64,000 nucleotides of DNA from a virus (lineage: Duplodnaviria > Heunggongvirae > Uroviricota > Caudoviricetes > Schitoviridae). Positions within the stretch are counted from its first letter, which is position 1, and each line of letters opens with the position of its first letter. The DNA lies in the IMG/VR virus record IMGVR_UViG_3300047463_000135, positions 1 through 64,000 of that record. One strand, written 5' to 3'. Under the pieces are notes generated by a model. That model saw only the letters and a list, made by a program, of their open reading frames with translations. It had not been told where the DNA came from and ran no database searches. Made by a program: the position numbers and the translations under genes. Of the stretch, positions 11,111 through 17,476 are shown in pieces.

Positions 11111-11156
11111 CTTGGCTTGTGAGCTTCGCTCACTTGGGTGATTAATCGTAAGGTCT

Positions 11157-11372
11157 TTGGAGACTACAATGTTAACACCTAAGAACTTTAGTGATCGTCA
11201 CCAGAAGTCACTTAGTACTTTCGCAAAAGCTCATGATGAGTTACAGCAACTTCACATTGACTTAGTTAATGAAGAAGAAACTGCTGCTAAACATCTTGCT
11301 GCTTTGAAAGCACGTCGTGAAGCTGTTGAACAATCACTGAATACTTTGCGTCCTCTAGTAGGACAAAAGTAA
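11157..11372 (+). CDS. Small coiled-coil protein
   Basis: 71-aa ORF. Confidence 0.35.
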   Translation: METTMLTPKNFSDRHQKSLSTFAKAHDELQQLHIDLVNEEETAAKHLAALKARREAVEQSLNTLRPLVGQK

Positions 11373-11809
11373 TGCACTAGAAGAGCGTCCCCGACAAGGC
11401 TCGAAGGAAGTGCAACAACAGTTTGGCAGAAGCTGTATAAAAACTGCCACCCAGATTTACACCAAAGCCAAAACCTAGGTAGGTTCGATACCTACGGATT
11501 CACATAAGATTCTTCTAAGGTAGACAAAGGACATTAGGTGTTGCGAAAGAGATCAATGAAATGGCAACTCTTAGCCCTCACATTCCAGAGGCAATTGCGT
11601 CAAGTAAATGACAAAGGGAATGATTCATCGGGGAGGTAAACCAATAGATCACTTTTGCAATTGCTCTATTCCTCCCCACCATAATGGGCCTAGTAGTTAG
11701 GTACGCTAACTGAGTTGGTTAGAAGAGAGTTCAATGCTCTCTAGGTCCACCTATTAATTCATTAGGGAAGAAGTAATTCGCCCTACTCCTTCACCTAAAG
11801 GATTAAACC
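11373..11809. other. ORF-free, GC-elevated structured region; includes the long imperfect hairpin GGGGAGG...CCTCCCC (11630-11677) and a T-arm-like hairpin at 11479-11495
   Basis: Neither strand has an ORF of 60 aa or more; the base composition differs visibly from the flanks; hairpins read directly. Confidence 0.3.
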
Positions 11810-14968: not shown

Positions 14969-15042
14969 AGCGATGAAGTGTAATGGTTACACGCTTGGCT
15001 CATAACCAAGAGTATTAGGTTCAATTCCTAACTTCGCTTCCA
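14969..15042 (+). tRNA. tRNA-Met(CAT) (elongator-type, or Ile2 if modified to lysidine)
   Basis: D-stem GTGT/ACAC, anticodon arm CTTGG-CTCATAA-CCAAG, T-arm TTAGG-TTCAATT-CCTAA, encoded CCA. Confidence 0.65.
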
Positions 15043-15049
15043 TATATTT

Positions 15050-15119
15050 AGATTACCCTCTGAGAGGAACAAGGTCTCCAAAACCATGTAGCTAGGTTTG
15101 ATTCCTAGGTAATCTGCCA
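15050..15119 (+). tRNA. tRNA-Trp(CCA), short (70 nt) with a reduced D-arm
   Basis: Acceptor AGATTAC/GTAATCT perfect, T-arm CTAGG-TTTGATT-CCTAG, anticodon loop CTCCAAA, encoded CCA; D-arm is noncanonical. Confidence 0.5.
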
Positions 15120-15121
15120 AA

Positions 15122-15607
15122 CAGTACGTGACTGGAGTCTGGTTATCAGTCTTCGTTTGGAACGAAAGTATGAACATTAGAACTTGTAGCAAGTGTGATG
15201 TTGAATACGAGCACTATGGTCAGAAGCACTCAGTATGTAGACCTTGTAAAAGAATCTATGACAGAGAGCAATATGCAAAAAAGACCAAGGAACAAAAGGA
15301 ACATAAACAAGAATTACAGAAACAGCGTTATATCCAAAATCGCCAATATATGTATGATTATTTAAGTACCCATCCTTGCGAAGTATGCGGAGAGTCTGAC
15401 CCAGTAGTACTTGAATTTGATCATTTAGATCAATCAACAAAACATACTGCAGTTGGCCTAATGGCTGACTACTCCTTAACTAAGATTAAGGAAGAAATTG
15501 CAAAGTGCCGTGTTCTATGTGCTAATTGTCATAAGAGACATACAGCAATCCAGATGGACTGGTACAAGCACTTGGTTCGGTAGGTTCAAATCCTACCGTA
15601 CTGACCA
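15122..15607 (+). tRNA. tRNA-Pro(TGG) interrupted at the variable-loop position by about 400 nt encoding an HNH endonuclease (5' part 15122-15168, 3' part about 15575-15607)
   Basis: 5' part: CAGTACG acceptor, ACTG/CAGT D-stem, and anticodon hairpin CTTCG-TTTGGAA-CGAA(A)G. 3' part: T-arm GTAGG-TTCAAAT-CCTAC, acceptor CGTACTG perfectly complementary to the 5' part, A73 and CCA. Confidence 0.55.
15170..15583 (+). CDS. HNH homing endonuclease
   Basis: CxxC...CxxC zinc motifs and the HNH core EFDHLDQ...N...CANCH. The start is taken at MNIRT (15170) because the longer ORF from 15128 would overlap the tRNA 5' half; the stop codon lies inside the tRNA T-stem. Confidence 0.7.
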   Translation: MNIRTCSKCDVEYEHYGQKHSVCRPCKRIYDREQYAKKTKEQKEHKQELQKQRYIQNRQYMYDYLSTHPCEVCGESDPVVLEFDHLDQSTKHTAVGLMADYSLTKIKEEIAKCRVLCANCHKRHTAIQMDWYKHLVR

Positions 15608-15609
15608 AA

Positions 15610-15687
15610 GGATCATTGAAGGGAATTGGTATACCTTCTAGTCTTAGATACTAGAGCTTCTGAGTTCGAGTCTCAGATGATCCACCA
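15610..15687 (+). tRNA. tRNA with anticodon TAG (Leu-like decoding of CUA), but class I structure with a short variable loop
   Basis: Acceptor GGATCAT/ATGATCC perfect, D-stem AAGG/CCTT, anticodon arm CTAGT-CTTAGAT-ACTAG, T-arm CTGAG-TTCGAGT-CTCAG, A73, encoded CCA. Confidence 0.6.
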
Positions 15688-15702
15688 AATTCTATATACT
15701 AG

Positions 15703-15727
15703 CCCGTCTTTATGATGGGCTTTTTGT
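15703..15727 (+). terminator. Rho-independent terminator (AGCCCGTC...GATGGGCT + TTTTT) closing the tRNA cluster
   Basis: Read directly. Confidence 0.65.
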
Positions 15728-15757
15728 TGTAAATCATTTCGTGCTTCGCACGATGTT

Positions 15758-16072
15758 GTGGAGTCCGTTATGGGTATCAAACCTACAGGTGTCTGGGTAA
15801 CAGCAGACAAACTACAAGATTTACATAGACTAGGCTATGAAGAGCTTGGCGGTAGTCTAGGGGATGGATTACATATGATATATGTATTCTTATCCGATTT
15901 AAAAATACTTCAACTAGGTGAAATAAGTTTTCAAACTGAACGTGCACCTTTAGTTGTGCGTAATTTAGATTTACTACCTCAATTATCATTGCTGTTTCAA
16001 ACAGGATTATATGAAGCTATCATTGAGATAGTTCATTCAGAATTAAACCAAGGCCAAGAGGATGATCAGTAA
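15758..16072 (+). CDS. Hypothetical protein
   Basis: 104-aa ORF. Confidence 0.4.
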   Translation: MESVMGIKPTGVWVTADKLQDLHRLGYEELGGSLGDGLHMIYVFLSDLKILQLGEISFQTERAPLVVRNLDLLPQLSLLFQTGLYEAIIEIVHSELNQGQEDDQ

Positions 16073-16803
16073 CAGGTGATCTGCAGTCCCTGTACGCTGT
16101 TTGCGGATATGGTAACTTATCCTAGGCATACTAGTTCCCCTTGGTTTAATAAAGTAGAGAGACGCGGTAATCGAATCCGCCTTGTAGTTTAACGAAAACA
16201 CTCTACGCCTAGACAGTATGACTCGCTCTACTGTCATTCCACCTATGGATTAAATAGGTCAATAAGAACCACTCAACGATCACTACTACAGCCTTGTGCT
16301 AACGTATATCTGCGGTGTGTGTTCTTATTGGGATGTGAATATGCGAACCTGAATATGAGAATAGTAGCCGTTAGCCTAGTAGGTGGAACGTGAGGGTACT
16401 CATTACAGAATGAGGGCTTTACTACAGTTAATCCCATAGAGTACGAGTGTTATAGACTTCGGCTTGAAACTTACAGAGACTCGCAATCTCTGGTATTCAC
16501 ATCACCAATGAGAACACAGCTTGACCCCGGCTTTAGGGGTGCTCACTGGCCCTAGCATGTGGCTTATCACTTGCCCTCGCTCCTTAGGGTATACCTCGGT
16601 GACGATCTTCCTCATTAAGTTTTTATTCGTATGGGATTAATGATAGAGCGTGTAACGTGCAGACAGGGTAAACAACGCCCCATTAGCAGAATAGTCCACT
16701 GTGTCGATACGGACTCTCGAATTCCCAATCAACCCCTCAAGTAGAGCTGTAGTTCTACTTTTTATAGCCCATAAGTCTAACCTCTAGCTTATGGGCTTTT
16801 TTT
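16073..16803 (+). ncRNA. Candidate large structured noncoding RNA (about 730 nt, GC-elevated, ORF-free, terminator at its 3' end)
   Basis: The plus strand has no ORF of 60 aa or more; many local hairpins; the region ends in the strong intrinsic terminator at 16776-16803 and sits beside the tRNA cluster. Confidence 0.3.
16776..16803 (+). terminator. Rho-independent terminator (AGCCCATAAG...CTTATGGGCT + T8)
   Basis: Read directly. Confidence 0.7.
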
Positions 16804-17148
16804 ATGTCAGGAGACTCTATGAGTGCCATATTTTTAAATATCGTTGCACAAACCAAGACAATTAACTTCTTTGGTTTAAGTATCACAGTACTACCTAAGT
16901 GGTATGAAGATAACTATTACGTAGCTATAGACCGTAGCGGTGGCGTGTATGTATATAACGCTAAACCTATCAGAAGCGGTAACCATCATATGTGCCAAGA
17001 AGGTAAAGAATTTGTAGGTCATTGTGTAGCTTATTTAGACGCATATACAGAAGGAGTCTACAACTTACGTGAGTGGGTTGATGACACCTGGGAGACTGTT
17101 TACAGACTTCAAGACTTCCCTTTAGTGAGTATGTCAAATGAGTGCTAA
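16804..17148 (+). CDS. Hypothetical protein, paralog A (FFGLSITVLPKWYEDNYYVAID)
   Basis: Clear similarity to the next ORF downstream. Confidence 0.5.
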   Translation: MSGDSMSAIFLNIVAQTKTINFFGLSITVLPKWYEDNYYVAIDRSGGVYVYNAKPIRSGNHHMCQEGKEFVGHCVAYLDAYTEGVYNLREWVDDTWETVYRLQDFPLVSMSNEC

Positions 17149-17476
17149 TTTATTCCTACAGCTTAAAGCCAATATGCTATGCATAGACTTCTTTGGTATT
17201 CCTGTTCCAGTACCTAAGCAATGGTATACAGATAATCATTGGTTAGCTATTGATATGGCAGGTGAGTTATTTATTTACTCAAATAAGCCTGTATTACGTG
17301 ATAACCACTGGGCATGTAATGAAAGATCATGGGGCAACCCACAATCAATAGGTGAACACATCTTAAACCTAGAATTCATAGACCCTCTATTTGAAAACTT
17401 GGATACATGGATTTCAGATAACTGGAATAAAGAATGTTGGCCTGTAACTACGTTCCCGGTACTTCGTACCGCTTAG
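17138..17476 (+). CDS. Hypothetical protein, paralog B (FFGIPVPVPKQWYTDNHWLAID)
   Basis: Tandem paralog of the gene at 16804..17148. Confidence 0.5.
   Translation: MSANLFLQLKANMLCIDFFGIPVPVPKQWYTDNHWLAIDMAGELFIYSNKPVLRDNHWACNERSWGNPQSIGEHILNLEFIDPLFENLDTWISDNWNKECWPVTTFPVLRTA

Follow-up and report, generated by a model that had tools for sequence, protein, structure and literature searches.

The stretch of DNA considered here (the window) comprises the first 64,000 nucleotides (nt) of IMG/VR virus record IMGVR_UViG_3300047463_000135. Its source is an Acinetobacter-type podophage of the N4-like group (Schitoviridae); the closest GenBank relatives of this phage are the Acinetobacter phages nACB1, At2 and VB_ApiP_XC38 (below, XC38). 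On its + strand, at positions 16039-16803, lies an element of about 765 nt that almost certainly specifies a structured non-coding RNA of a new family. The fuller reading, which we hold to be reasonably probable as a whole, is that a large non-coding RNA, highly structured and of a family not described before, is encoded here and that its molecules associate with one another.

The evidence is comparative and begins with the relatives. By blastn the region has matches in XC38 and nACB1, both of them in unannotated sequence, and nhmmer found a diverged copy in At2, inside an unannotated gap of 1 kb. Blastn with divergent members of the family returned three GenBank phages only. Motif patterns of what is called below the central domain returned XC38 alone from IMG/VR and nothing from GTDB genomes, and a pattern for the 5' domain had no match in either; the sole metagenome match of the central-domain pattern (L010) proved to be a chance match in a G+C-rich PhoH-like gene. 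Because pattern scans of IMG/VR, JGI metagenomes and GTDB added nothing, contigs were collected through the neighbouring AAA ATPase (closest relatives) and then scanned with a profile of the element. The profile recognized 13 more distinct contigs, drawn from assemblies in Logan, ENA and JGI. Together with the window, XC38, nACB1 and At2, these make 17 distinct sequences, 46-88% identical in pairwise comparison, with nhmmer and covariance-model matches at the syntenic place in all 17 loci. Two further, near-identical copies of the window's own element (98.6%) stand outside the 17.

In these sequences, conserved blocks alternate with blocks that vary by insertions, deletions and compensatory changes. 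The structure was tested as four sub-alignments, in which the cells holding a standard pair were compared with those obtained when the 3' partners were slid by 1-3 columns, and with 500 shuffles.

5' domain (17 sequences, covariance-model alignment): 92.5% of cells paired against 37-49% when slid; 17 of 29 pairs changed on both sides; reached by 0 of 500 shuffles.
A-H4-B (16 sequences): 95.1% paired against 35-49% when slid; 9 of 18 pairs changed on both sides; reached by 0 of 500 shuffles, in one measure by 105 of 500.
Central domain with the 22-bp B:C helix (12 sequences): 97.4% against 39-46% when slid; 20 of 32 pairs changed on both sides; reached by 0 of 500 shuffles.
3' domain with pseudoknot (13 sequences): 96.2% against 32-49% when slid; 22 of 37 pairs changed on both sides; reached by 0 of 500 shuffles.

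Combined, about 115 base pairs are supported, and 68 of these change on both sides. Covariation in homologous phages, proposed as a check in an earlier note on this DNA (made from its letters only), is therefore abundant. The shuffle control for A-H4-B is clean in four of five measures, the fifth being the count of further pair types. Helix arms that come from one and the same sequence also fit each other far better than arms drawn from different sequences, with mean duplex energies of -16.4 versus -7.5 kcal/mol for the B3':C helix and -8.6 versus -4.0 kcal/mol for hairpin H1. Because MAFFT mis-registers the 5' domain and the H1 stems, a covariance model was built on a clean subset and the sequences were realigned to it; the slid controls and the alignments made with MAFFT alone (A3, A4, A9) agree with the structure result.

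These helices read as RNA. They hold 95 G-U cells versus 19 A-C cells, an asymmetry that marks the pairing as that of RNA made from the + strand, and not of duplex DNA. The direction of the element is that of all flanking genes, and the terminator that closes it is conserved.

There is no gene for a protein. The earlier note had described 16073-16803 as free of open reading frames (ORFs) and richer in G+C than its flanks, and both descriptions hold. The longest ORFs there have 64, 54, 39, 38 and 37 amino acids (aa), with strands mixed; none of the ORFs within these coordinates matches Pfam or PHROGs; and nowhere else in the window do both strands go as far (731 nt) without an ORF of 80 aa or more. 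Among the homologues no ORF is kept in frame, strand or length (the longest internal ones, of 18-83 aa, vary in strand and place), and translated similarity appears in every frame and on both strands. An intact protein gene at this place, which would have made the stretch a decayed ORF, is carried by none of the homologous phages. The G+C content is 0.445, against 0.377 and 0.384 in the two flanks and a window mean of 0.385 (standard deviation 0.018, windows of the same size); this puts the element in the top 0.1%, as the most G+C-rich window of its size.

The 5' boundary needs correction, having been set at 16073. Conservation sets in abruptly at the junction AGAAUU/AAACC (16039), and the first helix begins at 16045, within the last codons of ORF 15758-16072; the boundary therefore lies about 30 nt further upstream. 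The sequence AAAGAAUUAAACCAAKGCCAA is kept in relatives in which no ORF ends there, which places the conservation at the level of RNA. The ORF itself (104 aa, no family match) overlaps the helices P1 and P1b of the element with its last nine or so codons.

The case for self-association comes from two hairpin loops of the 5' domain. L1, the 7-nt loop of H1 (UCUGCAG, 16080-16086), holds the palindrome CUGCAG, invariant in all 17 sequences. L2, the loop of hairpin H2, is 7-12 nt long and has the form GA-N-hexamer-UA. Its hexamer is self-complementary in 17 of 17 (two with terminal U-G, UCGCGG), and it takes eight sequences among the 17 phages:

CCUAGG: window, L011
UCUAGA: XC38, L017, L027, L028
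UCGCGG: nACB1, L025
UACGUA: At2, L013, L019, L021
UAGCUA: L026
UGGCCA: L014, L016
UGCGCA: L023
UUGCAA: L018

In the model alignment, the inner columns 95/98 hold CG six times, AU five times, GC three times and UA once, and the adjacent central columns 96/97 hold GC six times, CG five times and UA four times. The hexamer occurs once per RNA, 39-42 nt after L1, with no second copy at a conserved place, and L1 stays unchanged while L2 varies. Adjacent nucleotides cannot, of course, pair with each other within one loop. This, together with the single copy and the constancy of L1, leaves as the hexamer's only constant partner the same loop of a second molecule. L2 also evolves fast, since the RNAs of L023 (UGCGCA) and L025 (UCGCGG) are 85% identical and yet differ in it. 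A control that shuffled the loops retains their complementary composition, and no support is drawn from it.

Symmetric kissing loops of the kind suggested here are familiar from the dimerization initiation site (DIS) of human immunodeficiency virus type 1 (HIV-1), where a hairpin loop is likewise self-complementary. Two sequence features looked for in a kissing-loop RNA are found here: palindromes exposed in loops (L1 and L2), and covariation that keeps L2 palindromic, adjacent nucleotides included. For loop L9.3 of OLE and loop L21a of GOLLD, the same argument from covarying palindromes was confirmed by cryo-electron microscopy (PMC12286853). Comparison of the sequences strongly indicates that L1 and L2 are under selection for self-complementarity, and it makes association of the RNA with itself through L1 and L2 rather likely.

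The proposed mechanism is as follows. The RNA would be transcribed from the + strand jointly with the upstream tRNA and early-middle genes and would end at the conserved hairpin and U7; probably, a longer tRNA/early-middle transcript either releases it by cleavage or ends with it. It would then act as an RNA-only homo-oligomer, in which L1 and L2 each kiss the same loop of another copy with two-fold symmetry. Having two different symmetric contacts on each protomer, such an RNA could build dimers, chains or closed dihedral rings, much like ROOL, GOLLD and OLE. Its function in the cell is probably connected with the tRNA genes nearby, or with translation in the course of infection. A more specific proposal is tentative and, in our estimate, rather unlikely: that a closed dihedral ring or cage, made of RNA only and the first of its sort in phages of Proteobacteria, has this RNA as its protomer, with L1 as the universal contact, L2 as a phage-specific address, and competition of segments A and C-tail for segment B5' controlling assembly as a strand swap or switch. 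If it were true, the L2 address would stop the RNAs of co-infecting relatives from mixing.

The predicted parts of the element, all on the + strand, are as follows.

16045-16053: 5' strand of P1, AAACCAAGG, pairing with 16139-16147 and overlapping the last codons of ORF 15758-16072.
16139-16147: 3' strand of P1, CCUUGGUUU.
16054-16058 with 16100-16105: P1b (16054-16105), with one bulge, closing the H1 arm; 89% of cells paired, two of five pairs changed on both sides.
16072-16093: hairpin H1; its stem varies freely, all six counted stem pairs having changed on both sides.
16111-16138: hairpin H2, GG.AACU/AGUU.CC, with a conserved stem and the loop hexamer CCUAGG at 16121-16126 (L2).
16154-16206 and 16212-16235: optional hairpins GUAGAG...CUCUAC and GACAGUA...UACUGUC, in some relatives only.
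16241-16259: hairpin H3, ACCUAU/AUAGGU, conserved in all, with variants ACUAC/GUUAGU and GCC.AU/AU.GGC; outside the formal count.
16259-16269: segment A, UCAAUAAGAAC, complementary to B5'.
16270-16320: H4 arm, whose internal loop CAAUG(C) is conserved and whose tip varies (among relatives it bears GNRA tetraloops or additional arms).
16321-16342: segment B, made of B5' (GUUCUUAUUGG, 16321-16331) and B3' (16330-16342), which pairs with C.
16343-16492: central domain, optional in relatives, with the next three hairpins.
16414-16435: GGG/CCC hairpin with a conserved 15-nt loop.
16454-16465: UUCG hairpin.
16474-16492: hairpin CAGAGA/UCUCUG.
16493-16515: segment C, pairing with B3' with one bulged A, and C-tail (CCAAUGAGAAC, 16505-16515), a near-copy of A.
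16516-16765: 3' domain, optional in relatives, with the next six structures.
16524-16540: hairpin.
16556-16563 with 16652-16659: long-range helix.
About 16603-16615 with about 16640-16650: helix with a conserved UCC bulge.
16666-16680: GGG/CCC hairpin.
16686-16689 (GCAG) and 16662-16664 (GAC) with 16699-16705 (CUGUGUC): H-type pseudoknot, in which CUGUGUC belongs to the loop of AGUCC/GGACU (16693-16697/16711-16715).
16741-16758: hairpin.
16766-16803: hairpin of the intrinsic-terminator type, with a 10-bp stem (AGCCCAUAAG/CUUAUGGGCU) and a 12-nt loop, followed by U7.

The comparison shows that the predicted fold has a universal core, made of the 5' three-way junction (P1, P1b-H1, H2), H3, A-H4-B, the B:C helix and the terminator, on which the central domain and the pseudoknotted 3' domain are optional modules. 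The family thus ranges in size from about 300 nt (L019) to about 760 nt (the window). P1 is paired in 98.6% of cells, five of its nine pairs have changed on both sides, and its variants replace G-C by U-A or C-G (GAGCAAG/CUUGCUC in XC38, GGUUGUUGAUG/CAUCACAACC in nACB1). The 22 bp of the B:C helix are paired in 97.5% of cells, with 12 pairs changed on both sides; pairs of the H4 base helix include UA 8, GC 7 and CG 1; and the optional hairpin at 16212-16235 covaries in At2 (GGCAGUG/CACUGUC). The two hairpins that the earlier note had picked out are indeed present, AGUCC/GGACU at 16693-16697/16711-16715 and ACCCCGG CUU UAGGGGU at 16524-16540.

The central domain is cut to 20-45 nt in L014, L016, L018, L019 and L027, and the 3' domain is absent from L018, L019, L023 and L025. 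L023 and L025, and likewise L014 and L016, have RNAs that are 85-88% identical yet differ by whole modules. Since such close RNAs differ in this way, the first pair in its L2 palindrome as well, the family evolves fast and by modules.

One segment of the core has two conserved partners. B5' is complementary both to A and to C-tail, and both pairings are conserved. The helix A:B5' is paired in 99.3% of cells (16 sequences), with two of nine pairs changed on both sides. One column of A (UCAAUAAGA) covaries strictly with B5' in Watson-Crick fashion (AU 8, GC 7, GU 1), and a second compensated change occurs in nACB1; with H4, this helix would form one long arm. The helix B5':C-tail extends the B3':C helix; in At2 and L018 a different column carries compensated changes. 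The mean duplex energy is -9.4 kcal/mol for A:B5', against -14.1 kcal/mol for B5':C-tail. These alternatives, as predicted, might serve as a switch in folding or regulation, or as a contact at which protomers swap strands. A fourth segment, D, pairing with C-tail as in a 1-2-3-4 attenuator, is not claimed, the automated scan for it having been inconsistent; local hairpins UGAGA/UCUCA and UAGGA/UCCUA were seen by eye in several relatives during that search.

The terminator is kept in 17 of 17 sequences, with compensatory changes. It has the G+C-rich stem-loop and following U-run, on the transcribed strand, that define such signals, with a loop of 12 nt that is unusually long; a consensus terminator scan missed it because the scan's loop limit was 8 nt. 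This loop (16776-16787) has 10-13 nt in relatives, mostly with the C-rich motif CCCCAAG or UCCGUUGG. So long and C-rich a loop hints at a role beyond termination. The hairpin and U7 are thus as real as had been claimed. The start codon said to abut the T-run is only a formal ATG at 16804; the next gene's likely start is the ATG at 16819, behind a ribosome-binding site (AGGAG, 16809-16813), in agreement with the annotated start in nACB1.

The genomic position of the element is constant as well. In all loci it has the strand of the genes, with a Band_7/SPFH gene and a tRNA array on one side and, on the other, the small ORFs upstream of the ATPase, and in the relatives it is never annotated at this syntenic position; in the genome-paper literature that was searched, the region goes unmentioned. 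In 13 of the 17 loci the element is preceded by a tRNA array on the same strand, at a distance of between 14 and about 960 nt (in L027 the element begins 14 nt after a tRNA); the other four keep the RNA without tRNAs. The adjacency to tRNA genes that had been pointed out for the window is thus a conserved feature. More distant N4-like phages (L005, Vibrio phages) have neither gap nor match, and by its sequence matches the family appears so far to be confined to a clade of Acinetobacter-type N4-like phages (Schitoviridae).

The earlier note had seen here a large structured RNA of the GOLLD or ROOL kind, beside tRNAs and ending at a terminator. As a description this is supported by the covariation, the lack of a gene and the tRNA context; as a matter of family membership it is not, an Rfam search having returned only tRNAs and terminator-like noise. 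The GOLLD model (RF01998) has no match in 15000-17000 (E<=10), in the whole window (gathering score) or in seven relatives (E<=5). The ROOL model (RF03087) has none in the window or seven relatives, permissive thresholds included, nor do the models for HEARO, OLE, raiA, RNase P and transfer-messenger RNA (tmRNA) in the same sequences; ARAGORN, too, calls no tmRNA. A permuted RNase P, considered for its GGCUUAUC- and AUAGUCC-like motifs, was rejected, the order of the motifs being wrong and no model matching.

The likenesses that remain are those of a class rather than of a family. GOLLD, too, is a very large ornate phage RNA, often beside tRNA islands, and modular, with conserved and variable parts; the element shares with it a phage origin (here an N4-like phage) and the tRNA neighbourhood. 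In GOLLD, symmetric kissing loops with covarying palindromes underlie the homo-oligomer (PMC12286853). However, the universal part of GOLLD is its 3' region, whereas here it is the 5' domain, and the hosts of the element, which is known here from its sequence, are lytic N4-like phages of Acinetobacter. ROOL belongs to the same size class (about 500-600 nt), comes likewise from (pro)phages, has tRNA genes as neighbours and contains pseudoknots, and it is an RNA-only assembly held by quaternary kissing loops (PMC12286853), but its helices and conserved motifs are unrelated to those seen here. In OLE, the self-complementary core of L9.3 switches among GGCC, GAUC and AGCU (PMC12286853), much as the palindrome of L2 has switched among eight hexamers; the element differs in that its three-way junction bears two such loops, of which L1 is invariant and L2 hypervariable. 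Failing membership of each named family, the element is a new class among the large ornate phage RNAs.

Several observations weigh, of course, against reading the element as a free-standing, self-associating RNA. Folded as a single sequence, it departs only mildly from expectation in energy (z = -2.4 for the + strand and -1.7 for the - strand), a signal too weak and too little strand-specific to serve as an argument. The description of the region as highly structured therefore stands by virtue of the comparative evidence, and not, as had been argued, by the abundance of hairpins. The pairing counts lean somewhat upward, since the sequences share a common ancestry and one alignment, A8, had been fitted to the model. 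The palindromic loops could be sites for dimeric proteins instead of RNA contacts. No conserved promoter stands directly upstream of the element across the 17 loci, where the flanks (ORF ends, tRNAs, spacers) are unrelated and similarity begins abruptly. Lastly, a strong terminator 6 nt before the ribosome-binding site and 16 nt before the start codon of the next gene implies read-through or a polymerase that ignores it, and this placement also fits a cis-regulatory role.

This last point leads to the first alternative, that the element is a leader or attenuator acting in cis, a long 5' untranslated region in which the mutually exclusive helices A:B5' and B5':C-tail, with the terminator, set the expression of the small ORFs and the ATPase. 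The trp leader is such a case, an attenuator with alternative 1:2 and 2:3 pairings. Here, likewise, B5' has two conserved, mutually exclusive partners, each with compensatory changes; in the minimal forms no more than about 25-30 nt separate C-tail from the terminator hairpin downstream; and between terminator and next start codon there is no room for a promoter. However, no pairing was found that competes with or otherwise links to the terminator stem, the partners of B5' lie 50 and 175 nt away in a large folded RNA, and full-length forms have about 250 nt between the switch region and the terminator. An RNA of 300-760 nt with pseudoknots and conserved self-complementary loops goes far beyond known attenuators, and the downstream genes differ between relatives while the RNA stays constant. 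This alternative is unlikely.

A second alternative accepts the structured RNA and makes it a ribonucleoprotein scaffold, whose L1 and L2 bind a dimeric phage or host protein and not another RNA. Palindromes are, after all, classic sites for dimeric proteins, and L1 is as invariant as a protein site would be. L2 fits this poorly. It takes eight sequences that are always self-complementary and that differ even between RNAs that are 85% identical (L023/L025), as base pairing predicts; a protein would need to re-evolve its specificity each time. We regard the scaffold as quite unlikely.

Two further alternatives are close to excluded. The first, very improbable, makes the region an element of the DNA, be it a replication origin, a packaging site or a recombination site, in which inverted repeats would form cruciforms and the CAATGAGAA boxes (A, B inverted, C) would serve as protein-binding iterons. 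It has in its favour a box of about 10 bp in three copies, two direct and one inverted, and a location in the replication-gene region. However, the helices tolerate G-U five times more than A-C, a strand asymmetry meaningless in duplex DNA, and the pseudoknot, the long-range pairs and the coding-strand terminator are present where an AT-rich unwinding region is not, the stretch being the most G+C-rich in the window. This disfavours the replication origin that the earlier note had kept as an alternative. The other, in which a protein gene has decayed here or a self-splicing intron has left a remnant (the latter also named in the note), is the least probable of all: HNH endonuclease genes and broken tRNA-like pieces nearby do tell of visits by mobile elements, but there is no conserved ORF, similarity runs through all frames and both strands without a Pfam or PHROG match, group I and II intron models find nothing at E up to 10, the unrelated flanks imply neither exons nor an interrupted host gene, and the structure is under purifying selection.

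To our knowledge, only a handful of very large ornate RNAs are known from bacteria and phages. Cryo-electron microscopy has recently shown that such RNAs form RNA-only multimers. The eight palindromes at one loop described here are among the clearest sequence signatures yet of symmetric intermolecular loop-loop pairing. Because XC38, nACB1 and At2 are cultivable lytic Acinetobacter phages, the element is genetically tractable, and self-assembly, its specificity and its role in infection become directly testable; natural minimal forms of about 300 nt delimit the core. The annotation is also corrected for at least three GenBank phage genomes that show an empty gap at the element.

Some further features of the surroundings deserve mention. 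A terminator follows the last tRNA (15701-15728), and then a small hairpin, CGUGC-UUC-GCACG (15741-15753), with a 5-bp stem and a 3-nt loop, which we take to resemble the hairpin promoters of the N4 virion RNA polymerase. The same layout of terminator and hairpin is seen in nACB1 (L002, about 2660-2715), where GCAUCC-UUC-GGAUGC stands about 10 nt before the RNA copy.

Further upstream, positions 15574-15610 resemble the 3' half of a tRNA-Pro (T-arm and acceptor end) and match the end of the tRNA-Pro of nACB1. This half lies at the end of a cysteine-rich ORF of 151 aa (15128-15583) that has no Pfam or PHROG match; a tRNA gene may here have been broken or invaded by a mobile ORF. Another tRNA-like sequence, at about 15050-15122, has a T-arm (UAGGUUUGAUUCCUA), ends in GCCA and has a possible CCA anticodon; neither ARAGORN nor Rfam calls it, and a similar piece precedes the RNA in L021.

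Downstream of the element, 16819-17148 and 17138-17476 are tandem paralogues that share the motifs FFG..P..W.DN...AID..G....Y...KP and have no Pfam match. The second-longest stretch of the window without an ORF of at least 80 aa is 11111-11809 (699 nt); parts of it are conserved in XC38 and nACB1, whose annotation places small hypothetical genes there.

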